A stretch of 64,000 nt of DNA from Terriglobia bacterium (GTDB lineage Bacteria; Acidobacteriota; Polarisedimenticolia; Polarisedimenticolales; JAIQFR01), in assembly GCA_963790465.1 (NCBI GenBank), contig CAWBOP010000011.1, forward strand, positions 73,984 through 137,983, in the 5' to 3' direction. Of the stretch, positions 23,671 to 42,049 are shown piece after piece. Under the pieces are notes generated by a model. That model searched no databases, was not told the DNA's origin, and saw only the letters and a list, made by a program, of their open reading frames with translations. Positions within the stretch are counted from its first letter, which is position 1; each line of letters begins with the position of its first letter. The translations under genes were made by a program, and so were the position numbers.

Positions 23671-25467
23671 TTGAACAATCCGATTCGCGCGATTTTCCTC
23701 GCCGTTCTCGCGATCGTTTCCTGGCTGCCGGCCCGCGCGGCGGCGCCGACCCTTCTCCCGTTCGCGGACGTTCATCCGGGAATGAAGGGGACCGGACGGA
23801 CCGTCTTCTCGGGGACCACGGTCGAGGAGTTCCAGGTCGAGATCGTCGGGACCCTCCCCAACATCGGCCCCGGCCAGAGCCTGATTCTCGGCAGGTTGAG
23901 CGGCGGACCGCTCGCGACGACCGGCGTCCTCGCCGGGATGAGCGGCAGCCCGGTGTTCCTGGACGGGAAGCTCGCCGGCGCGGTCGCCTACAGCTGGGGA
24001 TTCTCGAAAGAACCGATCGCGGGGATCACGCCGATCGAGGAGATGCTGGCGGCCGCCGCGCGAGCCGAAGGATCGGGCGCGCCGGCGCGAACCGGCGCGC
24101 CGCTCGACCGGGCGGCCCTCGCTCGCCTTCGTTCCCCGCTCGCGGCGGCCTCGTTCTTTCCCGACGGCCTTCTCTCGCGTTTCCCGCACCCCGTCGCCGG
24201 ATCGCCGGCCGCCATCCCCGTTTCGGTGGCGGGACTCGGCGCGGCGGGGCTCGCGCGGCTCGTCCCGCTTCTCGGGCGGGCAGGGCTCACCCCCCTCGAG
24301 GGAGGCGGCGCCGGACGATCCCCCGGGGTTTCGCCGGCCCTGGTCCCCGGTTCCGCGGTGGGCATTAAGCTCTCGCGGGGCGATCTCGACATTACCGCGA
24401 CGGGAACCGTGACCTGGGTGGACGGCGACCGCGTGATGGCGTTCGGCCACCCGCTGTACGGACTCGGACCGGTGGATATGCCCCTCACGGGGGCGCGCGC
24501 CGAGGCGCTCATGCCGAGTCTCCAGGAATCCTTCCGGATGGCGACCCCGCTGTCGGAGATCGGAGCGTTCCGCCAGGACCGCGTCTCCGGGATCTTCGGC
24601 AAGCTCGGCGCCGCCGCCCGGATGATCCCGGTCCGCCTCGAGCTTCGCTCCCGCGGCGGCCCGACGGAGACGTTCGCCTTCGACGTCGCGAGCGACCCGC
24701 TGCTGGCCCCGCTGATCCTCTACGCGGGACTCAACGGCATTCTCGGCAACAAGGAAAGGGTCGCGGGCAACTTCACGCTCCGCCTCGCGGAAGGCTCCGT
24801 GATCAAGTCGGACGGGGTCGAGGACATCGCGCTGGACAACGTGTTCACCGGGCCCACGGCGGCGTACTTCGCCACGGGGATCCCGGCGTACGTGCTCTAT
24901 CTGCTTCTCAACAACGACTGGGCGCCTCCCAGGGTGAGCGGGATCAACTTGATCCTCGACTACGACGCCGATCCGCTTTCCGGCCGGATACGGCGCGTCA
25001 GCCTCGACCGCTACCGGGTTCGCGCCGGGGAGAAGGTCGAGGTGTCCGTCGTCGTGGCGCCGTACCGCGGCGCCGAACAGGTGCTGAAGCAGCAGATCGA
25101 GGTGCCTTCCTCCACGGCGCCGGGCCGCCTGCTCCTGTTCGTCGGGGACGCCTCGGGCCTCGGCCAGATCGAGGGGAACGAAGGCGACGTCATGCCCCGG
25201 GACCTCGCGCAGCTCGTGAAGCTGATCAATCAGCTCCGGCGCAACGATCGGGTGTTCGTGCTCGGGATCCGCGAGGACGCCGGGGTGATCCTGGGAGGCG
25301 AACGGATGCCGTCGCTCCCCCCTTCGGCGCTCAGCATTCTGTTGCGGCCGAAAACCCTCGGGAATTTCACCGTCGTGCAGCGCCGCGCGGTGCTCGAGGA
25401 GGAGATTCCAGCGGAGTACGCTGTCGAAGGGTTGGCGCGCGTGCAGCTCGAAGTGGAGGCGCCATGA
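23671..25467 (+). CDS. Peptidase S55 (SpoIVB-like) domain secreted protein
   Basis: TTG 23671 follows GGAGAG. Signal peptide NNPIRAIFLAVLAIVSWLPARAAAP. GTGRTVFSGTTVEEFQVEIVG...GMSGSPVFLDGKLAGAVAY is the S55/trypsin-like serine motif. Confidence 0.7.
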   Translation: MNNPIRAIFLAVLAIVSWLPARAAAPTLLPFADVHPGMKGTGRTVFSGTTVEEFQVEIVGTLPNIGPGQSLILGRLSGGPLATTGVLAGMSGSPVFLDGKLAGAVAYSWGFSKEPIAGITPIEEMLAAAARAEGSGAPARTGAPLDRAALARLRSPLAAASFFPDGLLSRFPHPVAGSPAAIPVSVAGLGAAGLARLVPLLGRAGLTPLEGGGAGRSPGVSPALVPGSAVGIKLSRGDLDITATGTVTWVDGDRVMAFGHPLYGLGPVDMPLTGARAEALMPSLQESFRMATPLSEIGAFRQDRVSGIFGKLGAAARMIPVRLELRSRGGPTETFAFDVASDPLLAPLILYAGLNGILGNKERVAGNFTLRLAEGSVIKSDGVEDIALDNVFTGPTAAYFATGIPAYVLYLLLNNDWAPPRVSGINLILDYDADPLSGRIRRVSLDRYRVRAGEKVEVSVVVAPYRGAEQVLKQQIEVPSSTAPGRLLLFVGDASGLGQIEGNEGDVMPRDLAQLVKLINQLRRNDRVFVLGIREDAGVILGGERMPSLPPSALSILLRPKTLGNFTVVQRRAVLEEEIPAEYAVEGLARVQLEVEAP

Positions 25468-27606
25468 CCCGCGCCGCGCTGCTCCCCGTGCTGCTCGCTT
25501 GCGCTACGCTCGCGCCGAGCCCCGCACACGCGATCCACACGCGGACCTGGACCGCCTCCGTCGCGGAGCTCGAGCGCGGCGAGGCGGACGGCGTCGCGGT
25601 CACCTCGCGTGGAAGGCTGTTCCTGGTCCCGCGCTTCGTCCCGGCGGGAGGGCCCCGCTTCGCCGGCGCTCCCGATCACGTCTGGTCGGCCGTGGCGGAC
25701 GCCTCCGGCAACGTCTATCTCGGGACCGGCCCCGAAGGACGCCTCCTCAAGATCGCTCCGGCCGGCGCCCTCAGCGTCCTCTTCGCCGCCGAGGAACCGA
25801 TGGTGACCGCCGTCGCCCTCCTCCCCGGCGGGGAACTCCTCGCGGGGACCTCCCCCGGCGGCAAGATCTACCGGGTCGGCCCCACCGGGAAGAGCGAACT
25901 CTGGTGCGAGACGGGCGAGCGGTACGTGTGGACGCTGGCGGTGGCGCCCGACGGCGCCGTGTACGCCGGCACCGGCGACCAGGGCATCCTTCTCAGGATC
26001 GACCGTGCCGGGAAGGCGTCGCCGATTTTCGACGGCGACGAGTCGCACATCGTCTCCCTCGCGTTGCTCCGGGAGGGCGGACTGATCGCCGGGGGGGCGG
26101 GGCGCGGTCTCGTCTACCGGATCGACGCCGAGGGGCACGCCCGCATTCTCCACGACGACGATCTTCCCGAGGTGCACGCGGTGGCGGTGGCGCCGGACGG
26201 CGCGATCTACGCGGCGATCCTCGGGCCGCCGGAGGCCGAGGCGAGGCCTCCCGCCGTGCGGATCCAGGTCGCCGGCGGCGGCGCGGAGGTCGGGGGCGAA
26301 CCCGGACCCCGTGGGGGACCTTCAGGAGCGGCCCGGGCAGACCCTCGAGGGGGTCATCGAGGGGTTGCCCACGATTCCCGAAGAGCACGCAACGCGCATC
26401 CGCGGCAAACTGGTGCGGATCGCGCCGGACGGGACCGAAACCGAAATATGGCGATCCGCGACACAGGCTCCGTTCTGCCTCGTCGTGGACCCTCAGGGAA
26501 GGGCGACGTTCGGAACGGGCGAGCCCGCGAGGATCTTCCGGACCGAGTCCGCGGACGAGGTCGCGCTGATCGCGTCCTTCCCGGAGGAGCAGGTCACGGG
26601 ACTGCTCGCCGCGGCGAACGGCGTCGTCGCGGCGACAAGCAACCCCGCGGCGGTTTACAGAATGGAGCGCGAGCCGCGGGAGGCGGGGGTCTTCGTGTCG
26701 CGCCCGTTCGACGCCGGCACGCTGACTCGTTGGGGGGCGATTCGCTGGCGGGCGGAGGGGGTGCCGGGCCGGGCGGAGTTCTACACCCGCACCGGGAACA
26801 CCGCGGAGCCCGACGCGACCTGGTCCGCCTGGGGCCCGGCCTTGACCGATCCCGACGCGAGCAAGGTGGGGAATCCGGACGGGCGGTTCGTCCAGTGGCG
26901 CGCGCGGCTCGCGGGGGGCGACCTGTCCGGCTCCAGGATCTCGGTGGCGGCGGTCAGCTACGCGGCGATGAACCGCGCTCCCGGAATCCGGGCTTTCACT
27001 CTCGACGGACCGAAGCCGGCGATCGCCGGGACGGCGAACTTCAGATTCGCCGTCGCGGATCCGGACGGCGATCCCCTCGCGGTCGAGGTGCGCTACCGGA
27101 AACGGGGGACCGACGCCTGGTCCGTTGCCGGCCGCGTGGACTCTCTCGACACGACGCCCGGTTCCGCGGACGACGAGGACTCCGGCTGGAAAAGCGGCAA
27201 GCTGGCATGGGACGCTTCGGCGGTCCCGGAAGGGACCTACGAGATCGCCGCGGTCGCGAGCGATCGCGCGGCCAACTTCGCCGGCGAGGCGAAGGAGAAG
27301 GCGGCGGATCCGCCGCTGATCGTCACCGTCGACCGGACGCCGCCGGTTCTCGACGTGCGGCGGATCGAGGGAGGCATCATCGAGGCCAGGGGGGTGGACG
27401 CGCTCTCGCCGATCAACCGGCTCGAGGCGATGCGCGACGGGAGGCCGGTCTTCCAGGGGCGCCCGGTCGACGGCGTGTCGGACTCTCGCGACGAGGTGTT
27501 CCGGATCGAGGCGTCCGATCTGGGGACCGGCGCCGAGGCGATTCAGATGCTTCGGGTGCTCGACGACGCCGGAAACGTCTCGGAGAAACCCGTCCCGGCC
27601 CCGTGA
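25464..27606 (+). CDS. Secreted beta-propeller-like repeat protein, function unknown (one apparent frameshift near 26307-26317)
   Basis: ATG overlaps the upstream stop (ATGA). Signal peptide MTRAALLPVLLACATLAPSPAHA. Repeats such as GNVYLGTGPEGRLLKI, GELLAGTSPGGKIYRV, GAVYAGTGDQGILLRI. The protein continues in ORF 26311..27606, and removing one C of the CCCC run 26307-26310 joins the frames. Confidence 0.7.
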
Positions 27607-31203: not shown

Positions 31204-31693
31204 ATGACCCGCTCCGCGCCGACCGCACCTGTCCGCAATGCACTCCCCGACGAAGGCCGCTGGCTGATCGAGATCCTGCTGGCGCTCGCCATCGCGACCG
31301 CGGCGGTCTTCCTCGCGGCCCGCTACATCGCAATTCCCTGGACGGTTCTCGGCCGCTCCATGGAGCCCACGCTCGAGCCGGGCGACCGAGTCCTCGTGGA
31401 TCTTCGCTCGTATCGCGCCCGCGCACCGGCACCCGGGGAGATCGCGCTTTTCGAGGGGCCCGATCGCACTCCTCTGGTCAAGAGAGTTGTCGCCGGACCC
31501 GAGCCTTCCGACGGGCCGCCGCCGTGGTCGCTCGATCCCGGAGACCCGATCTCGCGACGTTTCTGGGTGCGAGGGGATAACGCTCGCGAGAGCGCGGACA
31601 GCAGGGTTTTCGGTGGGGGTGCCGGCCGGGAGATTTCGCGGACGGGTTATCTTTCGGTACTGGCCGGTTTCTCGGATGGGATGGGTGAGGTGA
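31204..31693 (+). CDS. lepB: Signal peptidase I (S26), with an apparent +1 indel in a G-run near the 3-prime end
   Basis: GRSMEPTLEPGDRVLVD (catalytic Ser box), PLVKRVV, GDNARESADSRVFG. The conserved C-terminus VPAGRFRGRVIFRYWP is in another frame (ORF 31487..31693). One fewer G in GGGGG 31615-31619 restores ...SRVFGGVPAGRFRGRVIFRYWPVSRMGWVR*. Confidence 0.8.
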
Positions 31694-31732
31694 CATAGCC
31701 AGTTCCTGCACGACCAATCCCAATCCCAACCC

Positions 31733-31987
31733 GACGCGGATTTCCGGGGATTTCATCCCCGGACCCCTGGCAACCACCGTTCGCAGGGATCGGCGGACCG
31801 ATCCCCGCGAACGGCGGTTTCTACCTGCAAGCCCGACCCGAGCAGGGTTCGAACTCCGGACTCCCAAGTGGAAACCTCCGTTACGGACGGCAGTCCGCTG
31901 CCGTCCGTAATGGAGGTTGCGCGGGCGTTCGCCCGCGGAGGAGAAAAATCCGTTAGCGTCGCCGCCGAGTCGGAATCCCCGCATGAC
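31733..31987. repeat. Repeat unit 1 (255-nt core)
   Basis: GACGCGGATTTCCGGGGATTTCATCCCCGG ... GAGTCGGAATCCCCGCATGAC. Has one G-to-A change in the second hairpin (GCAGGG). Confidence 0.9.
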
Positions 31988-32005
31988 AAACTTCCAATCC
32001 CGCCC

Positions 32006-32260
32006 GACGCGGATTTCCGGGGATTTCATCCCCGGACCCCTGGCAACCACCGTTCGCGGGGATCGGCGGACCGATCCCCGCGAACGGCGGTTTCTACTTG
32101 CAAGCCCGACCCGAGCAGGGTTCGAACTCCGGACTCCCAAGTGGAAACCTCCGTTACGGACGGCAGTCCGCTGCCGTCCGTAATGGAGGTTGCGCGGGCG
32201 TTCGCCCGCGGAGGAGAAAAATCCGTCAGCGTCGCCGTCGAGTCGGAATCCCCGCATGAC
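32006..32260. repeat. Repeat unit 2 (255-nt core)
   Basis: Hairpins at 32016-32036, 32050-32087 (17-bp perfect stem, loop CGGA), 32148-32189 (19-bp stem, loop TCCG) and 32193-32210 (7-bp stem, loop GTTC). Confidence 0.9.
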
Positions 32261-32322
32261 GGATCCCGATCCGGACCCGACGAACCACCGATTCTCAACC
32301 GACAAACCACCGATCCCAACCC

Positions 32323-32577
32323 GACGCGGATTTCCGGGGATTTCATCCCCGGACCCCTGGCAACCACCGTTCGCGGGGATCGGCGGACCGATCCCCGCGA
32401 ACGGCGGTTTCTACTTGCAAGCCCGACCCGAGCAGGGTTCGAACTCCGGACTCCCAAGTGGAAACCTCCGTTACGGACGGCAGTCCGCTGCCGTCCGTAA
32501 TGGAGGTTGCGCGGGCGTTCGCCCGCGGAGGAGAAAAATCCGTTAGCGTCGCCGCCGAGTCGGAATCCCCGCATGAC
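32323..32577. repeat. Repeat unit 3 (255-nt core)
   Basis: Near-identical to units 1 and 2. Confidence 0.9.
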
Positions 32578-32618
32578 GGATCCCGATCCCGGACCCGACA
32601 AACCACCGATCCCAACCC

Positions 32619-32873
32619 GACGCGGATTTCCGGGGATTTCATCCCCGGACCCCTGGCAACCACCGTTCGCGGGGATCGGCGGACCGATCCCCGCGAACGG
32701 CGGTTTCTACTTGCAAACCCGACCCGAGCGAGGTTCGAACTCCGGACTCTCCAGTGGAAACATCGATTACGGACGACGGTCCGCCGTCGTTCGTAATCGA
32801 TGTTGCGCGGGCGTTCGCCCGCGGAGGAGAAAAATCCGTTAGCGTCGCCGTCGAGTCGGAATCCCCGCATGAC
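32619..32873. repeat. Repeat unit 4 (255-nt core, variant third hairpin)
   Basis: The third hairpin, 32761-32802, has 10 substitutions relative to the other copies, yet the 19-bp stem is retained. Confidence 0.9.
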
Positions 32874-32935
32874 GGATCCCGATCCGGACCCGACGAACCA
32901 CCGATTCTCAACCGACAAACCACCAATCCCAACCC

Positions 32936-33160
32936 GACGCGGATTTCCGGGGATTTCATCCCCGGACCCCTGGCAACCACCGTTCGCGGGGATCGGCGGA
33001 CCGATCCCCGCGAACGGCGGTTTCTACTTGCAAACCCGACCCGAGCGAGGGTTCGAACTCCGGACTCCCAAGTGGAAACCTCCGTTACGGACGGCAGTCC
33101 GCTGCCGTCCGTAATGGAGGTTGCGCGGGCGTTCGCCCGCGGAGTAATAAAATCCGGATT
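32936..33160. repeat. Repeat unit 5 (3-prime end diverged after about 33144)
   Basis: Full hairpins 1-4, then GCGGAGTAATAAAATCCGG instead of GCGGAGGAGAAAAATCCGT. Confidence 0.85.
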
Positions 33161-33217
33161 CGCACACGAAAAAGCGCAGGCCCACCCGACCCGAGCGCAG
33201 GTTCGAACTCCGGACCC

Positions 33218-34038
33218 TTAAGTTGAAACCTCGCCAGGATTCAAGCTTCCGGTCCGGTAGCCTTCGAGGTCCAGGGCGACGAAGCGAAAACCGGCCGCCT
33301 TGACCGCCGCCACCACCGCGCTCCGAAGCGCGGGGTCGGACAGGCGGCGGTCGCCGTCGGGATCGAATTCCAACCTCGCGATGTCTCCGTGGTGGCGCAC
33401 CCTGAACTGGCGGAAACCGATCTCCCGCAACGACTCTTCGGCGCGTGAGACCTGGCCGAGGCGCTCCTCGGTGACCTCGATCCCGACAGGGATCCGCGAG
33501 GAGAGGCAGGCGCTGGCCGGTTTGTCCTTGGTCCTCAGGCCTGCGGCCGAGGCAAGGACACGGACATCTTCTTTCGACATGCCGGCCTCGAGCAGAGGCG
33601 CGATGACCTGCCGCTCCTCCGCCGCGCGCATGCCGGGCGGAAATCGCCGCGATCCTCCGCGATCGCGCCGTAGGCGACCGCCGGGAACCCGCGCTCGGCG
33701 GCAATGCGGCCCAGCGACTCGAACAGGGCCGACCGGCAGTGGTAGCAGCGGTCGCCGGCATTGGCGCGGTATTCCGGGATGTCGAGCTCGCCCGGGTCGA
33801 CCTCGACGTGGGAGACACCGAGGGCGGCTGCTGTGTCCCGGGCGTCGGTCTCGTCCTGCCGAGGTAGCGAGGCCGAGCGGCCGGTGACCGCGAGAACCCG
33901 GTCCGTCCCGAGCGCCTCGACCGCGAGCGAGAGCAGGACGGCGGAGTCCACCCCCCCCGAAAAGGCGACCACGACACTTCCGGCGTGACGAAGGCAGGCC
34001 AGAGCTTTTTGCTTCTTTTTAAGAATTGCTGAATTCAT
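33218..34038 (-). CDS. larE: PP-loop ATP-utilising enzyme, LarE-like sulfur transferase family (one apparent frameshift near 33632-33640)
   Basis: VVAFSGGVDSAVLL (PP-loop SGGxDS), DRCYHCRSALF, then, in a second frame (ORF 33218..33631), MRAAEERQVIAPLLEAGMSKEDVRVLA...ACLSSRIP. The join DRGDFRPGMRAAEE needs one extra base at CCGGG 33633-33637. Confidence 0.8.
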
Positions 34039-34289
34039 CGCTCGCTCCAGCCCCCGCGTCGCGTCCCGGCTTTTGGCGCTGCCCGCAGGCCGTCGCGCCG
34101 GAAATCGTCTTCTTCATCCTAGCACTTCGGCGCGACCGCCTGCGGTCGGTGGAACCGCAAAACGCAGGGGAGAACGGCTTGACAACCCGTGGCGATCACC
34201 GTACATGAACGTTGCCCCGTGAGGGAACTGTGTATCGGGTAGACTCTATAGTCCGTTGTGTCCCACTAACCCAAAAGCAGGAGGAGGAT

Positions 34290-37200
34290 ATGCGCATTCG
34301 TTTTCTCGCTGGCTGGAGAGGCCTGACGTTGGCCGCAGCCGTCGCGAGCTTGGTGCTGCTGTCGGCGACGGGAGCCTTCGCAACTGTCGTCGCGAACCCG
34401 ATCGGCGGAACCCAGGGATTCGCCGCCGCGTCGGAAGAGAACACCATCAAGCAGCCGACGCTGTACCCCAGGGCCAACTACCAGTGGCAGTACGGCACTG
34501 GCCCCTTCTATGGGGAGGTGGACGAATCGAACTGGAACGCCAAGGGGGTCATGCACCTGTCCGTCGGCTCGTTCGACACAGGCCGTGGACTCCCGAACAT
34601 TCCGCAGGAACTGCGAACGGCCGTCAAGCTTGACCGACAGGCGGCCCAGTATTTCCTGCTGCAGGTCGATCCGGCGTCGTTCGCCGACGGCTCGTTCGAC
34701 CGGCTCAAGGAGAGCGTCGAAGCAAGCGGGGGCGCCGTCGTGCAGAGCATGCCGGTCGCTGGCTTCGTCGTCCGCCTGACCCCGGCTGCCTTCTCGGCGG
34801 TCCAGGGGCAGCCCGGCGTGCTCTTCCTCGAGCCCTACCATCCCGCGTTCAGAATTTCTCCGTACCTTGGCCGCGTCCCGCTGACGGACCCGGTGAAGGC
34901 TCTGTCGAGCGTCTACTCCGTCGAGATCACGCTGTTCCCGGGCGAGGACTCCAAGGTCGTCGCGCAAGCGGTGGCCGCTCTCGGCGCGAACGTCACGGCG
35001 ATCTGGAGCGACGTGGTGAAGGCCGACGTTTCTCGCGAAAAGATCTCGCAGATCGCGGCCCTCGAGCCCGTCGCGATGATCTTCGAGGAGATTCAGAACC
35101 TCCCGAAGAGCGAAGAGACCACGACGGTTATCCAGCAGGGGCATTACACCAATGGTGCGATCCCCTACCACGACGCCGGGATCAAAGGCAGCGGGCAGCT
35201 TCTCATGGTGCTCGACAGCGGCATCCAGCTCGACGCCGGCGACATATCGGACACCTACTCCAACGCCGGAACGCCCGGCGCGCTGCACCGCAAGGTGCAG
35301 TGGTACACGACGACCAATACGTACCTCGGCGCGGGCGACGCGCTCGGGTGCGACGCGCCCCAGCAGGGCGGCTTCACGCACGGCCAGATGGTGTCAGCCA
35401 CCGCGCTCGGAAACGGCAGCGCGACGTCGCTCGCTTACGGCGGCGCGTGGTACTACACCGATCCGCTCAGCGGCAAGAAGTGGAAACTCGACGGCGTCGC
35501 GCCCGGCGCGCGCGTCGGGCTCTACGACGCCAGCGTGACCGCGACCACCACTTCCTGCGACGACCCCGCCGTGAGCGGGATCTTCCCGGGCAACATCTAC
35601 ACCCGCCCCGGCGTGGCGGGCACAGGTTCCCTGAGCGACGCGTACACGCTCGGCGCGCGCGCGTTCAACTTCTCCTGGGGTCAATACCAACAACCCGGTT
35701 TACGGCACGAACGCCACGAAGATCGACCAGTTCCTGTTCGACAACAAGGACGCCATGCTTTTCGTGTCCGCCGGCAACTCGGCCCTGGACACGGACCGCA
35801 ACGGCTTCCCGGACTCGCTCTCCGTTTCCGACCCGGCGACCGCGAAGAACGCCATGGTCGTCGGTGCGACCGACACGGCGAACGACGGCGGCCTCGACAC
35901 CACGAAGCGCCGCGCCTCCTTCTCGAGCATCGGCCCGGCGACCTTGACCTCGGGGCGCACCGCCCCGGTCATCATGGCCCCCGGCCAGGACATCGGCACT
36001 CTCGGCCCGCTGTCGGAGTACTCCTGCCGCACGAACGACAACGACCAGAACAACCCGGTCGAGTGCGACGTGATGCTCGGCGTGGCCGGCACCAGCTTCG
36101 CGTCTCCTGCCGCCGCGGGCGCGGCCCTTCTCGTTCGCGACTACTTCGTCCAGGGGTTCTATCCCGACGGCACCGCGAGCAACACGCTGAACGCGGCGGA
36201 CCAGGTCCCGAACATCTCCGGCGCGCTCGTGAAGGCGATCCTGATCGCGTCCGCCGATTTCCTCAATTACCCCTGCTACTTGGGGGATCCGAGCTGCACG
36301 ATCAGCACGGCGAACCCGACCAAGTACCGCTTCAACAACGAGCAGGGGTACGGGCGCGTCCAGTTGAACAACATCCTGCCGCTGCTCACCTACCCGAGCC
36401 CTGTCGGCCTGATCGTGGCGGACGGCGGGATGGTCGGCGGAGTCAACAACACGTCGTTCTCGGGCACCGCGGGCGCGGGCACCACCGAGACGTACACCTT
36501 CACGATCTCCGACACCACGAAAGAACTGCGGGTCGGCCTGGCCTGGATCGAGGACGCCTCGGACGCCTTGGCGAACGACCTCGATCTCGAGCTTGTGTCT
36601 CCCAGCGGAAAGATCTACTGGGGCAACTACTTCACGGACGACAACGACAGGGACCGGCAAAGCGATGTCGGCGAAGATTGCGCCGTAGCTCCGTGGGAGG
36701 CATTGGCCACCGCGGACTTCTACCCGTGGAGCCTTCCCACCTGCGCGAACTCGATGCGCGACACGAAGAACCCGACCGAGGCGATCTTCCTGTCTCCCCA
36801 CCCGGATTACACCGTCGGCGCGGGTTCCACCCTGCCTGATCCCGATCCCAAGAACCAGCTCGAGGCCGGGTCCTGGACCCTCAAGGTGATCGGACGGACG
36901 GTCCCCGCGGGCAGCCAGAAGTACGCGGTGGCGATCGCCGGGCCGGTCCAGCTCGGCTCCTCGGTTCGCCTCAACGTCTACCGGGCCATCAGCGGCACGG
37001 ACGTGCTGGTCGGCGACCTCCCCGCCTGCAACGACAAGGTGAAGGTGGTCGTCAACGAGTACGCCGACGTCACCGATCCGACGCCGACGACCTCGCAGGT
37101 CAGCGCCCGGACCGTCGTGCAGGTCCTCGACAGTGTCGGAAGCGTTATGGACCAGGAGACCAACCTGGCCTTCACGCAGGACGCCGGCACGCTCAAGTAC

Positions 37201-40200
37201 AGCTCCTCGATGGTGATCCTCACCGACAGCATGCTGCCGGTTTCCGGCAACGGCGTCCTCGATGTGCGCGATGGTCAGACGATCAAGGTGTTCTACAACG
37301 ACCAGACCAGCGGGTCGGCCGATCCGAACAAGACGCGATTCAACCAGACGACCGTCTACTGCCGCAGCACGATTCTGTTCGGCGGCGTCACGTTCGGCCT
37401 GTTCGGCAAGGACATGGCGGTGGCGATCAATGGCGGCTGCGAGCGGGATGCTCGCGGCATGTTCACGTTCGGCTACCCCGACCAGTACATGGATCACGGC
37501 GAGCTGATCGACTTCCAGATCGCCGTCCAGACAGCGGATACGACGGATCTCGAGGACGCGGTCGCCACGCTCAAGGCCGTGTACCACGACCTCGACAGCC
37601 CGGCGAGCTGCCTGCCGAACACCACCGGGTGTACCGATCCGAACCGGACGAACAACGTCCCGGTCGCAAGCTCGATTCTCACCGTGCTGGACTCGCCGAA
37701 GATTATCGGCCTCATCCCGGCCCAGTACAGCCCGAACGTCAACCAGACGTCGGCGCCGGTCTTCGCGGTGAACTTCACGATCCAGATGGGGGCCGTGATC
37801 ACCGGGAAACTCGACGTCGACATGATCCTCGGCATCTCCGCACGGAAGGCCGGCAAGCCGATCGAGGGGCTCTCCGTCTACCGGATGGACCTGAACGCCA
37901 ACGAGACGGCGCTCTATTACTCGACCGATTTCCCGACCGGCGGCACCCAGAACTACGACTGGAACAACAACGAGTCGCTCGAGAATCCCTCTTCGATGCT
38001 GGGCGATGTCAACGTCCAGTGGGACTACCACTTCGAGACCGTGACCTGGTCCGACCTGACCGCGGGCGGCACTCGTAACACGTCGCTCCAGTCGCCCTGG
38101 AAATTCGACACGAACAACGGCGGATTCCGCTCGGGGCTCAACTCCGGGACCAACGCCGCCACCTCCGGTGTGCTCGCGCAGTGGGGCGAGGACAAGAACT
38201 TCAACGACATCCTGGACACCGGTGAAGACCGCGACCCGTCCAATAGCCTTCTGGACCAGAACTGGTCCACGAAGGGCGGTTGCGGGTGGCAGACCAAGGC
38301 CCTCACCACCAGCGCCACGGGCGGTGTCTGGCACACCGGCAGGATCGACGTGACGACCCTGTCGCAATGCGCCAAGAGCGGGAGCATCAGTTCCCAGTGC
38401 CAGACTTACGAGACATACCCCGGCATCACCGCACAGAGCTACTGGTGGGAGCTCCTCGAGACGCCGGTGATCAATAAGGTCAACCCGACGGTTGACGCCG
38501 AGGGCCGGCCCGTCTACCGCGTGCAGTTCACCAACTGGGCGTGGAACATGGCAATCGACATGCCGGACTCCCTCGCGATGATCACCTGGGAGTTCGACAC
38601 CGATCTCGACAAGATCAGTCCTATCACGCTCGAGGCGGACGGCAACCTCTTCAACAGCCTGTCCGGCGCGTTCGGGACGGTCAGCATGGGCAATGCGCCG
38701 CTGACCAACGGCTTCCCGGTGTTCGCCGATTTCAACGGCACCGGCGCGACCACATCGAAGAACGGCACGATCGGCGGGAACCACGAAGGGAAGAATCCCT
38801 GCACCTTCGAGGAGTACGGATCCCGCTACACCCCGTACGGGTTTGCCCTCCCGGTCGACGACGATCTCCGTAACGGCTGGTGCGAAGCCGCGAACGTGGC
38901 GGACCGCACCTGGAACAAGCAGACGTCGTGCACGACCGCGGACCAGGCGACGGTCTGCCTGGCGCCGACGTATCACGGCCTCTGCGTGTTCGACGCCGGC
39001 TCGTCGACCGACCTGTACGTCTACAAGAACGGACCGCTGCGCAACATGAACCTCGAACACGTGAACGGTTGGATCGACGGCCGGTACTACACGCTCGAGG
39101 ACATCTACGGCGACTCCGGCTCCCGCTTCCAGGGGGCCGTCGGGTTCGTCGCGTTCGAAGGAACGACCAGCCTCGCGCCGAAGAACGGCTACGGTGTCGC
39201 GATCGACGACATGGTGGTGGAGTGGAAGGAAACACGGACCGACGAGGACACCACCACCAACTGCAGCACGGCGGGAGCCTGCGCAACGCTCAACCTCTCC
39301 GCTGGGACGTTCTACTCCGGCCTCGCGGTGCTCGAAATCACCGTGACCGACCGGTCGCCCGGCAACCTGTTGGGCGTGAATGACTGCGACCACAACGGCC
39401 TTTACACCGATCTGGGGGTAGACGACAACGACTGCGACAACAACGGAACCCCCGACGTGCCTCTCCAGGCCTACAACGACGTCGAGCCGCTCGGCGAATG
39501 GGTGGTCCTGAACCAGACCAGCGTCACAGGGGTGTTCAAAGGGAACTTGCCGATCTCCTCGGCCTTCGACTCGGCGGGCACCCTCTTCGTCCAGAAGCAG
39601 GGGACGTCGCCGGCGTCGGTGACGGTCAAGTACCTCGACCCGAACGACGGAACCGGCCAGCCCTGCAAGGCGAGCCCCGACGCCGCCCAGTGGGGCCAGG
39701 TGCAGGCCTACGCGAGCGTCTACGTTCCGTTCCTGAACGTCACCGTCAAGTCGAGCCGGGTCGTGAGCCTCACGGGAGACGGCGACGGTTTCGCCGACAC
39801 GAACGAGACGGCGCAATTGTGGATCACCATCTCGAACAAGTCCACCGTCGACCTCACCAACATCGTGGCCCGGCTGGTCTCGAACGACCCCAAGGTCGAC
39901 TGCATCCTGCAGCCGACGATCACGATGGCGTCGCTCGCCAAGCTGACCACCCAAGAGATCGGTACCCCGTTCGTGTTCCACGTTTCGTCGACAGCCAGCC
40001 GGCCGGCCGGCGGCGAGAACAGCGAATTCACGGCGAAATTCAGCGTCACGATCGCCTCCGACCAGATGGATGCGACCTCCGCTGCCCAGGAGATCACGAA
40101 GGAGTTCGATCTCGACATGACGGGCGGGGGCACGGCGCTGAACTACGTCGAGGGGTTCGAGGGGGGCTTCGGAACGTTCACCTCGATGTCGCTGGACAAG

Positions 40201-41898
40201 GGACTCAACACCAACCTGCTGTCCGACGGCATGCGTTGCCAGTACAGCGACCCCGACTACATCAACTCCAACTCCTACGGCGAGAAATACTGCTACCTGG
40301 GATTCGCGGGCAAAACCGATGAGTTCAACATTTTCGACTGGCACATTCACTCGACCGCGAGCCCCGACGGCGGACGCGCCTTCCTGGGAAGTAATTCCCT
40401 GCACTACGGCTTCCACCAGTCGGCCTCGGCGGACAACGACATAACCCACTTCTCCTCGATGGACGCGATCCGGATAAACAATCCGGTCAACCTCGGGTAC
40501 ACCCCCGTGACCCCAGGCGATCCCGAGATGTCGTTCAAGATGCAGGTTTCGATGATGGACTACCGCTCTGTCAACGCGCTCTTCATGCAGGCCCCCGACC
40601 GCGCTGTCGTCGAGCTCCAGTTCGCCGACACCGCCGGCACCCCCACGGGCGTCTGGCAGAAGCTGTATCCGTTCGAGAACACTTACGACATCCAGACCTC
40701 AAACAACTACATCAACTGTATTTTCGACCCGAGCGACGACGGCAACAACGAGGACAGCTATTTCTCGCCGACCGATCCGCTCAGGTGGTTGGGCCCCTCC
40801 ACCACCTGCTACCCGGAGTTCAACTTCGGGTCGGTCGGTAGCACCAACTGGAACAACGGGTTCATCCCCGGCACTACCGAGCGCGCTTCCGACGACCGCA
40901 TCGGCCTGCAGGGCTCGATCGATCGCGGCACCTGGGTCCAGACGAAGTTCAACTTCGATCGGTACCTCGGCCGCAGCGTCCGTCTCCGTTTCCTCGCAAC
41001 CACGATCAAGGTGAACGACACCACGGATTGCATCGCGCTCGGCTTCCCGAACAAGAGGTCGCTGGACGACGGGTGGTGGATCGATGACCTCCGGATCTCC
41101 AACACGATGAGCAGCCCGGCCACGATATCCGCGGACACCAAGGACAACTCCGCGCTCGCGGCCTGCCCGGCCAACTGCACGACGGTCACGGCAGCGCTCG
41201 TCTCCAGCCCGAGTACCGCTCTCGCGGCGCCCGGCCAGGTGGTTGAGCTTCGCGCCGCCGGCTCGTCCGCCGACATCTGCCTCTCCGGCACGCTCCAGTA
41301 CCAGTTCTGGCTCGACAACAATAGCAACGGAACGTTGAGCACCGTCGACGGCGACACGCTGGCGCGCGATTGGTCCGACAACTCGGCGTACATCGATGCT
41401 CCGCTGTACTCGACGCAATATGGCGTCAAGGTCCGTTGCTCCTCGGCGCCGACTTGCGCGAGCCAAGCGGTCCGCGCCGTCGTCGTCACCTGCCCGGGCA
41501 CCGTGCAGACGTTCTTCTGCCCCACCATCTACGTCAACAAGCTCAATCTCACTGGCACCGTCGAACCGGACAACACCGTCTGGGTCGCGGGCCTTACCGC
41601 GGCTACCCCTGTCGACGTGATTGCCGGCAATCTCACCGCGCTGAGGACTGCCAAAACCTACACCGGCAGCGCGCTGGCGTGCCTGGCGAACGACGGCACC
41701 CTCCCGTATTACATCCCCATCGGCCCAACGATCCTCGACACGACGCTGGCGCTCACCCCCGGCCAGGCGCAGTACTACCTGTGCCGGCCCCAGGGGGCGA
41801 GTTACTGCAACGCGAAATACACCTACAGCGCGGGCGCCCCGAAGGAATTGGCGGGTCGCGACACCGAGATCGCCGCGGGCGCGATCAAGTGCCCCTGA
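34290..41898 (+). CDS. Giant secreted subtilisin-like serine protease (peptidase S8), about 2,500 aa, with a very long C-terminal extension (one apparent frameshift at G-run 35677-35680)
   Basis: AGGAGGAGGA RBS then ATG 34290. Signal peptide MRIRFLAGWRGLTLAAAVASLVLLSATGAFA. Catalytic triad context: LMVLDSGIQ (Asp), GGFTHGQMVSATALG (His), LFVSAGNS (oxyanion Asn), GVAGTSFASPAAAGAALL (Ser). The protein continues from ORF 34212..36839 into ORF 35755..41898 at ...AFNFSWG/VNTNNPVYGTNATKIDQFLFDNKDAMLFVSAGNS. Confidence 0.85.
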
Positions 41899-41925
41899 TC
41901 CTTAGAAGTTAACCGTTTCTTTCAA

Positions 41926-41955
41926 GGGGAGGGACTTCGGTCCCTCCCCTTTTTT
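41926..41955 (+). terminator. Rho-independent terminator after the giant protease gene
   Basis: GGGGAGGGAC-TTCG-GTCCCTCCCC (perfect 10-bp stem) followed by TTTTTT, 28 nt after the stop codon. Confidence 0.85.
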
Positions 41956-42049
41956 CATGGGGGCTGGGGCAGTCTGTTGGATCTGAAGCCGGGTTCGCCG
42001 CGAATGAGCGCCGCGGAATCGCTCGGCGCCACGCGCTCGACCCGCCGGG

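Follow-up and report, generated by a model that had tools for sequence, protein, structure and literature searches.

Gene structure and flanking elements

The locus at 34290-41898 (plus strand) of the 64,000-nucleotide window, which is the whole stretch of DNA analyzed here, encodes a giant secreted subtilisin-type protease of approximately 2,535 amino acids, and the gene is real. Its features are listed in Table 1. The preliminary description had treated this interval as one self-contained ORF, but in the deposited sequence the sense switches frame at 35677-35682. Frame A starts at 34290, turns to nonsense past approximately 35680 and stops at 36839; frame B makes sense from approximately 35680 to 41898. 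The two frames overlap, and there is no stop codon at the junction. The S8 catalytic residues are thus not in one continuous frame in the deposit, the Asp and His of the triad being located in frame A, and the Asn and Ser in frame B. The public record contains solely the truncated downstream ORF of 2,047 amino acids (P0100, 35755-41895).

Table 1. Positions of the protease gene, its domains and the flanking elements in the window.
Feature	Position	Strand	Details
Palindrome TGCGG-N9-CCGCA	34141..34159	.	between the divergent LarE-like and protease genes
Promoter-like element	34179..34207	+	TTGACA 34179-34184, 17-nt spacer, TACATG 34202-34207
Leader block	34215..34233	+	small CCCC-loop-GGG hairpin, then TGTGT
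Shine-Dalgarno AGGAGGAGGA	34279..34288	+	ahead of ATG 34290
Signal peptide	34290..34382	+	aa 1-31, identified by inspection of the sequence; AFA precedes the predicted cleavage point
N-terminal pro-region	34383..35186	+	aa 32-299; conserved across the family (alignment)
S8 catalytic domain	35187..36354	+	PF00082; Asp309, His364, Asn497, Ser603; frame break inside
Asp309	35214-35216	+	VLDSG
His364	35379-35381	+	FTHGQ
Frame break	35677..35682	+	GGGGTC; one extra base or two missing versus every homologue; within the S8 domain
Asn497	35776-35778	+	SAGNS
Ser603	36094-36096	+	GTSFASP
Beta-jelly-roll, KP-43/SubHal type	36406..36942	+	aligns to C-terminal domain of 5fax/1wmd; AF2 all-beta
Beta-sandwiches BS1 + BS2	36961..38064	+	AF2 tile 1; no Pfam match
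JR1, large jelly-roll-like	38077..39255	+	long Asp/Asn-rich loops; invariant Cys, Trp, His; C-terminal GVAIDDMVVEW
BS3 + BS4	39277..40125	+	BS3 with TSP3-like Asp/Cys loop 39379-39456; BS4 with GDGDGFADTNE; AF2 tile 2
JR2, jelly-roll-like	40126..41145	+	C.FDP.DDGN.ED..F.P.DP ... DDGWWIDD; separable module
Ig-like domain + C-terminal domain (~110 aa)	41167..41898	+	ends Cys-Pro, then stop; AF2 tile
Intrinsic terminator	41924..41957	+	12-bp stem + UUCG loop (41924-41951 including stem-loop), T6

The strong Shine-Dalgarno sequence that had been claimed is present: AGGAGGAGGA contains two overlapping copies of AGGAGG (34279-34287) just 5′ of the ATG, and the core CAGGAGGAGGGT-ATG is kept in all 14 other syntenic orthologues. 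In the promoter-like element, TTGAC and GTA.A show little or no variation among 15 loci, which gives the form TTGACA-17-TACAnn. A consensus scanner missed this element because position 6 of the second hexamer, TACATG, is not the usual T; judged from its conservation, it may act as a promoter. In the leader, CCC..GGGGG..TGTGT is conserved in the 15-locus alignment. The TGCGG-N9-CCGCA palindrome is the sole exact copy in the window (chance expectation, 0.14), its arms are constant and its spacer varies across the orthologous loci, and it may be bound by a transcription factor. The ribosome binding site, signal peptide, TTGACA-17-TACAnn and palindrome are kept together in the 15 loci. At the other end of the gene, the terminator is the sole strong one in positions 1-63000, where other candidates are weak and as frequent as in shuffled sequences, in line with its earlier designation as the only textbook terminator in the window. 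A dedicated promoter, leader, strong ribosome binding site and terminator very probably serve this gene, and the conservation of the upstream elements in 15 loci supports the independent transcription that had been proposed.

Catalytic domain and beta-domain extension

The N-terminus, MRIRFLAGWRGLTLAAAVASLVLLSATGAFA with TVV after the predicted cleavage point, reads as a Sec signal peptide, in line with the signal peptide described previously; it has no lipobox Cys, and its pattern M[HR]xR[FL]LAGW[RK]GL..A.AVASL is kept in orthologues. The pro-region, which had no Pfam matches at E ≤ 0.05, apparently contains two I9-like beta-alpha-beta units and would represent the propeptide. In the frame-repaired protein, Pfam Peptidase_S8 (PF00082) matched aa 300-689 with 89.2 bits, above the curated cut-off of 21.8, and the Asp, His and Ser were found in the S8 order, together with the oxyanion Asn and the usual motifs. 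A triad had been placed within roughly the first 630 residues, and Asp309, His364 and Ser603 are all there. An alignment of 21 sequences shows no variation at these three positions, and Asn497 is present in at least 90%. The prediction of a secreted S8 exoprotease is supported by these sequence features. In a family-profile search of the PDB, 5fax (E 1.7e-27) and 1wmd (E 1.3e-26) came out as the structures nearest to the catalytic domain, with the next matches at E > 0.01.

The domain directly after the catalytic domain had been described as P-domain-like. The segment LRVGLAWIE...NDLDLELVSPSGKIYWGNYF was found where it had been reported, but it has no PF01483 match and aligns to the KP-43/SubHal jelly-roll as the third aligned stretch (i-E 1.4e-4 for 5fax and 5.5e-4 for 1wmd). 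A kexin/furin-type convertase was rejected as a candidate because PF01483 was unmatched at E ≤ 0.1 in the whole protein and the next domain is the KP-43/SubHal-type jelly-roll.

The remaining residues, approximately 1,700, form at least eight distinct all-beta domains for which no described domain was matched, in agreement with the approximately 1,750 residues that had been called unassignable. Profile searches of the whole protein against Pfam, NCBIfam and the PDB gave the S8 region as the only real match, and no PPC, PKD, FN3, P-domain or PA domain was found in the protein by Pfam. Foldseek searches with the extension returned generic beta-sandwich matches that were weak (E 1e-7 to 1e-3, TM-score ≤ 0.25), and those for JR1 were likewise only generic. 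The AF2 models of tile 1 (pLDDT 84.5) and tile 2 (pLDDT 82.8) are both confident and all-beta. Among the accessory domains, of which there are at least eight kinds, only BS2 and BS4 form a related pair (hhalign probability 88%).

The motifs GDGDGFADTNE and WWIDDLRISN are both located as described. The thrombospondin-type-3-like stretch, NDCDHNG...DCDNNGTPD, is also in place and the Asp/Cys loop residues of BS3 (39379-39456) are conserved in the family, but the match to Pfam TSP_3 is not significant; PF02412 was unreported at E ≤ 0.1 (whole protein) or E ≤ 10 (domain), and the likeness is at the motif level. The beta-domains would be rich in disulfides and in acidic loops that probably bind calcium. 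The abundance of cysteines was confirmed, with 43 Cys (1.7% versus 0.6% in neighbor genes), many of which are invariant in the family.

A profile search with JR2 gave 626 protein clusters at E ≤ 1e-3, and the domain also stands alone or joined to TSP_3, PD40, FG-GAP and M10 domains. JR2 had zero matches in a profile search of the PDB, and its score against the InhA-like_MAM domain (PF20773) was 12.7 bits, below the cut-off of 26.9. The C-terminal domain with its terminal CP likewise recurs in proteins of other architectures. The C-terminus, ...AGAIKCP, has neither LPXTG nor a hydrophobic tail, and the last ~110 residues are globular. The suggested search for a dedicated sorting signal at this end matched no known sorting-signal family: for type IX CTD, PEP-CTERM, MYXO-CTERM and GlyGly-CTERM signals, NCBIfam at E ≤ 0.1 gave only a weak mycosin match and one chance match.

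Conservation, origin and proposed role

Approximately 60 full-length homologues of 2,400-2,700 amino acids were found, with identities of up to 58%. The 64 genomic loci belong to Acidobacteriota (including strain Mor1) or unclassified MAGs, except for two small fragments. The gene order [large unknown gene]-SBP_bac_5-permease-permease-signal peptidase I-(LarE-like, reverse)-protease is present in at least 15 Polarisedimenticolia genomes, with the protease gene at the end of the conserved block. The locus is the orthologue, at a conserved position, of a giant subtilase specific to the class Polarisedimenticolia (GTDB class Mor1).

The gene had been regarded as compositionally distinct and laterally acquired. 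The first part holds for its G+C content (0.646 versus approximately 0.70 for the window; 0.56 and 0.48 at codon positions 1 and 2) but not for its GC3 of 0.90, which is the same as in the neighbors (0.81-0.94), and the correlation of its RSCU with that of the neighbors (r=0.958) is within the range of native genes (0.87-0.975). The G+C content is lower because of the amino acid composition, since the protein has much Asn, Thr, Ser and Asp and little Arg (Asn 6.0% versus 1.8%, Thr 9.7% versus 4.5%, and Arg 3.1% versus 9.6% in the gene and its neighbors, respectively). This composition, the numerous cysteines and the all-beta models are in keeping with an extracellular protein. The low G+C content and the gene's own promoter region and terminator are what a laterally acquired, compositionally foreign island might display, but such an origin is very improbable given the native GC3 and codon usage, the recurrence of the neighborhood and its upstream region in at least 15 genomes from this class, and the absence of tRNA genes from the window and of mobility genes from the Pfam-scanned flanking ORFs, which encode transport and metabolic proteins. 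Sequence comparison instead indicates that inheritance is vertical, at a fixed genome position within one class of Acidobacteriota. The frame break is most likely a sequencing or assembly indel, because the gene is a single ORF in 14 of the 15 syntenic orthologues, the removal of one base heals the alignment, other genes in the window are also broken, and a related contig carries an extra G. With T35681 or C35682 deleted, the sequence reads SWGNTNNPVYGT and aligns gap-free to the homologues and to KP-43/SubHal (SWG-NTNN-PVYGT with SWG-APVN-GAYTT of the latter). The frameshift that had been flagged at the G-run 35677-35680 is present in the deposit and may be located outside the run itself. Frame breaks also affect at least three more genes of the window (the LarE-like gene, a large gene at ~26.27 kb and an S9 peptidase), and in contig L074, whose DNA is 91% identical, the LarE-like gene is intact with one G more at window position 33635; this comparison concerns the LarE-like gene, as the site 35677-35682 is covered by no close relative. 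If the break were real, the gene would be a recently inactivated pseudogene that yields no more than 463 N-terminal residues followed by an out-of-frame tail, without the catalytic Ser, rather than a secreted full-length enzyme. This reading would fit the break in the deposited assembly and the truncated public protein, and the breaks in neighboring genes could mean gene decay. It is unlikely, as GC3 and codon use are undegraded across 7.6 kb, there is only one break and there are no in-frame stops, the catalytic and family-invariant residues are all retained, the break in the LarE-like gene is a one-base difference from L074 in a GGG run, which is the pattern of homopolymer indel errors, and four broken conserved genes in 42 kb fit assembly error better than independent decay. 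A programmed +1 ribosomal frameshift could join the frames in that they overlap across a stop-free junction, but is exceedingly improbable: the homologues need none (14 of the 15 syntenic orthologues, like ~60 database proteins, are encoded in one ORF), TGG GGT CAA lacks the slippery or stop-codon context seen at known +1 sites, and similar breaks occur in other genes of the window. With an assembly indel as the most likely cause, the organism therefore most likely makes the full-length protein.

We consider it likely that the gene is transcribed on its own and that the full-length Polarisedimenticolia subtilase is exported by Sec and degrades extracellular protein. An operator-like palindrome would precede the promoter-like element, leader and very strong ribosome binding site of a transcript ending at the terminator; the product would be exported via its cleavable signal peptide, with a pro-region of ~270 aa and an S8 domain and jelly-roll arranged as in KP-43/SubHal. 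Judged from fold class and composition, the beta-domains may anchor the enzyme on polymeric substrate, particles or the cell surface, and the oligopeptide-type ABC importer of the same conserved gene block may bring the released peptides into the cell. As an opposite-strand gene separates the importer genes from the protease gene, the adjacency could also be plain conserved gene order without functional coupling. The protein might instead be mainly a structural surface or adhesive protein or an anti-cell agent, whose S8 domain serves self-processing or attack rather than nutrition. Approximately 70% of it is a beta-sandwich/jelly-roll stack like those of adhesins, integrin legs and macroglobulin-type proteins, JR2 and the C-terminal domain also occur in non-proteases with TSP_3, PD40 and FG-GAP, and the common upstream motif suggests joint expression with those proteins. 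Such a role is improbable as the main one, since the triad and oxyanion residue are strictly conserved in the family, the nearest solved relatives are broad-specificity secreted proteases, the gene is conserved beside a peptide importer, and the lineage is described as protein-degrading (PMC8528874). The nutritional and surface roles are compatible with each other. The composite palindrome-plus-promoter motif lies 5′ of this gene in 11 loci and also 5′ of JR2-domain secreted paralogues in L038, L057 and L058; in a sample of metagenomes, a homologue lies downstream of 17 of the 121 motif sites. A speculative extension, to which we assign a low probability, is that the giant protease and smaller secreted proteins with JR2 and the Cys-Pro C-terminal domain form a co-regulated extracellular system peculiar to Polarisedimenticolia, in which a regulator would act at TGCGG-N9-CCGCA and the C-terminal domain would be a new export or surface-attachment tag.

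Comparison with known subtilases

KP-43 (MEROPS S08.123) belongs to the oxidatively stable protease subgroup in the pyrolysin group of subtilases (PMC9549277). TSS is a related collagenolytic enzyme, and the jelly-roll of KP-43 is needed for propeptide removal (PMC11294657). The protein described here is similar to KP-43/SubHal (1WMD, 5FAX), its closest solved catalytic domains (profile E 1e-27), in having a beta-jelly-roll directly after the catalytic domain and in its predicted secretion with an N-terminal pro-region. In contrast, the solved chains have ~434 residues compared with ~2,535 here, the present catalytic domain is longer, with 390 residues versus a 288-position Pfam profile, the ~1,700 residues of the extension have no counterpart, and KP-43/SubHal are from Bacillus whereas the present protein is from a Gram-negative acidobacterium. 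Given its ~2,535 residues compared with a mature enzyme of ~43 kDa, the protein is treated, from its sequence, as a relative rather than a member of the KP-43 subgroup.

Pyrolysin, fervidolysin (1R6V; a weak match in the PDB profile search, E 0.32) and the PPC/PKD proteases also have a subtilase core followed by calcium- and substrate-binding beta domains, but their usual accessory domains were undetected here by Pfam. JR1 and JR2 end in motifs of the D-D-G-W-x-I-D-D type like the MAM-like domain of immune inhibitor A, although JR2 scores below the PF20773 cut-off. The loop at 39379-39456 resembles the calcium-binding repeat of thrombospondin type 3, and genuine TSP_3 and Laminin_G_3 (PF13385) domains are present in some of the paralogues and larger homologues.

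Lactocepin PrtP is an S8 protease of ~2,000 amino acids with a long stack of beta-domains, and it cuts external protein into oligopeptides that are taken up by the Opp ABC importer with its family-5 solute-binding protein. Similarly, the protease gene here is conserved near SBP_bac_5 and two permease genes. A lactocepin-type proteinase was rejected as a candidate because the PA domain and LPXTG were unmatched in Pfam/NCBIfam and the C-terminus is AGAIKCP; unlike in PrtP, the PA insertion, LPXTG anchor and a PrtM-type partner were undetected in Pfam/NCBIfam, sequence similarity is confined to the S8 domain, and the coupling to the importer is here a putative one. The protein is read as a new form of a known enzyme type, a multidomain secreted subtilase with an unassigned beta-domain extension.

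Catalytic unit and C-terminal extension

The giant subtilase contains the Asp309/His364/Ser603 triad together with Asn497, and the strong ribosome-binding site, signal peptide and triad named in the preliminary description are all present in the sequence, as are the Asp-rich and Cys-rich motifs. When the whole protein was compared with Pfam, the only match was to Peptidase_S8 (aa 300-689, 89.2 bits), and an NCBIfam scan gave nothing useful. A search of all PDB sequences with a 52-member family profile returned subtilases only, the best being SubHal (5fax) and KP-43 (1wmd) at an E-value of about 1e-27. The segment described as P-domain-like is a domain, but of another type: in the repaired protein it aligned to the C-terminal beta-jelly-roll of SubHal and KP-43 (i-E 1.4e-4), and no Pfam P-domain was matched. 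Kexin-type P-domain, PA, PPC, PKD and FN3 modules were likewise rejected, none being found by Pfam with the whole protein or per domain at E ≤ 10. The PDB alignments of the catalytic domain and the jelly-roll indicate that the first ~890 residues form a unit like KP-43, in which a pro-region is followed by the catalytic domain and the jelly-roll. KP-43 itself (MEROPS S08.123) belongs to the oxidatively stable subgroup within the pyrolysin group (PMC9549277), and its propeptide removal requires its jelly-roll (PMC11294657).

The C-terminal extension of ~1,700 residues, with its beta-sandwich (BS) and jelly-roll-like (JR) domains, was modelled as two tiles from an alignment of 52 sequences. Both models are nearly all beta, with pLDDT values of 84.5 and 82.8 and pTM values of 0.68 and 0.73. 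Foldseek against the PDB gave weak matches (E 1e-7 to 1e-3, TM-score ≤0.25) to stacked beta-sandwich proteins, namely SdrD, factor XIII barrels, arrestin, macroglobulin, complement, integrin alpha legs and Sas6, and returned no enzyme fold. Profile-profile comparison of nine sub-domains identified a single related pair, BS2/BS4 (probability 88%), which ruled out a tandem repeat architecture for the extension. Nor does the extension consist only of well-known tandem Ig, FN3 or PKD modules, as judged by Pfam at E ≤ 10 and by Foldseek. The per-domain Pfam matches at this threshold were faint. Assignment of JR2, the last jelly-roll, as a MAM or InhA-like domain was rejected: InhA-like_MAM scored 12.7 bits where the cut-off is 26.9, and a PDB search with the domain profile was empty. 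A second catalytic centre (Cys/His site) at the invariant GGCGWQT...WHTG of JR1 was also considered and rejected: these residues lie in loops and strands of the model, the Cys is on no helix, and Foldseek found no enzyme fold. From the model, we take them to be structural.

The protein database contains some 60 homologues that are full-length and single-ORF (2,400-2,700 aa, identity of up to 58%). Where a name is given, it is 'hypothetical protein' or 'S8 family serine peptidase', and the source is Acidobacteria bacterium Mor1 or Candidatus Polarisedimenticolaceae. When one genome was scanned for each species, 64 protease loci were obtained; two are small fragments labelled Gemmatimonadota, and the others come from Acidobacteriota, unclassified MAGs and strain Mor1. 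Several genomes carry multiple copies. The JR2 profile is more widespread, matching 626 protein clusters at E ≤ 1e-3. JR2 also stands alone behind a signal peptide (~385 aa), occurs in proteins of 700-1,000 aa, and elsewhere precedes TSP_3, PD40, FG-GAP, Big_5 or M10 domains. Many JR2 proteins share the same C-terminal domain of ~110 aa with a terminal Cys-Pro, which had no match to the known sorting-signal models of NCBIfam. A search for annotated relatives of this domain was uninformative, giving only short fragments in which MopE-like motifs were dominant.

The interrupted reading frame

The single gene proposed at 34290-41898 is real, but it is not one ORF. ORF listing and translation showed two overlapping frames and no gene-length single ORF. 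Frame A starts at the ATG at 34290, makes sense through ...ARAFNFSWG and is nonsense from there to its stop at 36839, and frame B makes sense from ...NTNNPVYGTNATKIDQFLFD through the stop at 41898. The switch is located in GGGGTC at 35677-35682, where the homologue family reads NFSWG-xxxx-(P/N)xYG. Removal of either T35681 or C35682 gives SWGNTNNPVYGT, which has the same length as in homologues P0005 and P0006 and aligns without gaps to SWGAPVNGAYTT of SubHal and KP-43. The addition of two G to the G-run also restores the frame, with one extra residue. Since both repairs succeed, the error need not lie inside the G-run. The conceptual repaired protease has ~2,535 aa.

The break is present in the deposited record: the public protein P0100 (2,047 aa), encoded on a single 209,666-nt contig from NCBI/ENA, is identical to the ORF at 35755-41895. 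Signal peptide and pro-region are missing from it, and of the catalytic triad only Ser is retained, Asp and His being absent; as a result of this truncation, automated annotation misdescribes the giant protease gene. Two further disrupted sequences were observed in the family. In one long-read MAG, the orthologue consists of two separate ORFs (L025 8276-14601), and the tail of homologue P0007 reads as out-of-frame sequence, so frame errors in the giant gene are not unique to the window.

Three other genes in the window are frame-broken, and the origin of the protease break was considered together with them. A short-read metagenome contig (L074) aligns to positions 33199-34733 with 90.8% DNA identity; in it the LarE-like gene is intact and has one G more exactly at 33635, in a GGG run. 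By this comparison, the LarE-like break is of the kind that marks an indel error in a homopolymer. The large gene of the conserved upstream block is a single ORF in two related loci (L001, ≥1,063 aa; L002, 1,327 aa). The S9 peptidase-like gene has at least 5 frame changes in 2 kb and retains motifs such as GGSYGGY; either the assembly is dense in errors here or the gene has decayed. Fourteen of the 15 syntenic orthologues of the protease have no interruption. Because the metagenome contig stops short of the protease break, the argument here is one of analogy, and on that analogy the break is very probably an artefact. A real break, which would make the gene a pseudogene, is considered unlikely, and programmed frameshifting as the means of joining the two frames is so improbable that it carries almost no weight.

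Genomic setting and conserved upstream region

The protease gene was described as compositionally distinct and, partly on that ground, as laterally acquired. Its G+C is lower, but what sets it apart is confined to the amino-acid level. The three codon positions have a G+C of 0.56/0.48/0.90, compared with a GC3 of 0.81-0.94 and a higher GC1 in the neighbours. For synonymous (RSCU-type) codon usage, the correlation with the neighbours taken together is r=0.958, native genes ranging from 0.87 to 0.975. The lower G+C results from the amino-acid composition, which is rich in Asn/Thr/Ser/Asp/Tyr and poor in Arg/Leu/Ala, as is typical of extracellular proteins. Gene order and orientation upstream of the protease are the same in 15 or more genomes, that of Mor1 (CP011806) among them. 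This block consists of the large unknown gene, SBP_bac_5, two ABC permeases, a short signal peptidase I and, on the opposite strand, the LarE-like gene; the genes downstream are not conserved. No tRNA gene was found in the window. The claim of lateral acquisition is contradicted by the GC3, the codon usage and the synteny: the gene is not laterally acquired and there is no foreign island.

The signal peptidase gene closes the ABC importer operon, keeps its position in at least 8 related genomes, and could be dedicated to the exported proteins of the block. A tandem array follows it in which each unit contains two long, near-perfect hairpins, and three copies have identical sub-threshold Rfam matches to RAGATH-10 (30.7 bits vs 41.2). 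The array is missing from all related loci, where the signal peptidase and LarE-like genes abut.

The intergenic region of ~250 nt between the LarE-like and protease genes was aligned from 15 loci, and the conserved blocks are listed in the table; the signal peptide is conserved as well. Promoter and operator roles for these blocks are inferred from their conservation. The minus-strand block looks like an extended -10 element of the divergent LarE-like gene. An ECF-sigma promoter type was rejected for its unsuitable AAC-to-CGT spacing of ~13-14 nt, and TTGACA-17-TACAnn was kept, with a predicted transcription start near 34214. For the region upstream of the protease gene, Rfam gave no known leader or riboswitch.

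Features of the giant subtilase locus and related loci (window coordinates unless a locus is named)
Feature	Position	Strand	Remarks
S9-family prolyl oligopeptidase/dipeptidyl peptidase-like gene	48 to ~2000	+	family assigned by eye, no profile search
Large gene without Pfam domain, first of conserved block	24423-27603	+	two frames, break at 26267-26293 near GGGGG run
Type I signal peptidase gene	31204-31698	+	164 aa, complete; SMEPTL, KRVVAGP, GDNARESADSR
Tandem array	31708-33156		~5 copies of 273-317-nt unit, 90-96% alike; between signal peptidase gene and LarE-like gene end
LarE-like PP-loop gene	33100-34038	-	frameshift ~33635, ...GDFRP / GMRAAEE...
Conserved block ATCCTAGCA	34116-34124	-	minus-strand reading TGCTAGGAT
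Palindrome TGCGG-N9-CCGCA	34141-34159		arms constant, spacer variable among 15 loci
TTGACA, 17 nt, TACATG	34179-34207	+	T1, A2 and A4 of second hexamer invariant
Small C-run/G-run hairpin, then TGTGT			conserved in 15-locus alignment
Ribosome-binding site CAGGAGGAGGGT-ATG			conserved in 15-locus alignment
Palindrome-plus-promoter module	L038 6952-7021
Palindrome-plus-promoter module	L057 9721-9831
Palindrome-plus-promoter module	L058 986-1047, 2518-2579
Palindrome-plus-promoter module	L011 7074-7135

A single copy of the palindrome is present in the window, compared with 0.14 copies expected by chance. The composite motif (palindrome plus TTGA-N17-21-GTA) was found in 11 syntenic loci and also upstream of paralogues of three kinds, namely a 991-aa protein in L038, stand-alone JR2 proteins (one in L057 and a pair in L058) and, in L011, a small protein rich in Cys. 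In L057, one palindrome serves promoter-like elements on both strands. With a stricter motif, among the 121 metagenome sites listed, 17 precede a homologue, and 16 of the 17 lie ahead of the start of a giant protease gene. These occurrences support the sharing of the protease's upstream motif by a small set of genes, and suggest a common regulator for the giant protease and the smaller JR2 secreted proteins. The gene ends in a terminator with a 12-bp stem, a UUCG loop and a T6 tail, and the claim that this is the only strong intrinsic terminator holds for positions 1-63000. The elements at the two ends of the gene support independent transcription, which is probably regulated. The view of the locus as a self-contained secreted protease gene is thus borne out by the S8 match, the signal peptide, its own upstream region and the terminator.

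Proposed role and comparison with known systems

Among the multidomain secreted subtilases, the giant protease is a variant specific to its lineage and as yet uncharacterised; its extension is large and unassigned, and its regulatory region is conserved. Polarisedimenticolia, which are common in sediments and soils, are believed to feed on protein; to our knowledge, none of their enzymes has been studied so far. The size, conservation and secreted nature of the protease, and its fixed position beside a peptide importer, make it a concrete candidate for the enzyme that begins protein degradation in this group. The ~1,700 residues without a family assignment, one of whose domains recurs in over 600 protein clusters, are a target for structural and binding studies, and the shared upstream motif offers a direct route to the regulator and the co-controlled genes. 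The protease is therefore a good target for enzymology, domain discovery and regulator finding.

In the proposed mechanism, the protease would be exported through Sec, and its pro-region would be removed with the assistance of the jelly-roll, as in KP-43. The enzyme would then be extracellular or surface-held, with beta domains stabilised by calcium and disulfides keeping it on its substrate or on the cell, and the released peptides would be imported by the adjacent family-5 ABC importer. This is not a new kind of system. In its logic, the combination of giant protease and importer is like the lactococcal PrtP-Opp system; in contrast to PrtP, the giant protease has neither the defining PA domain nor the LPXTG anchor, which places it outside the PrtP family.
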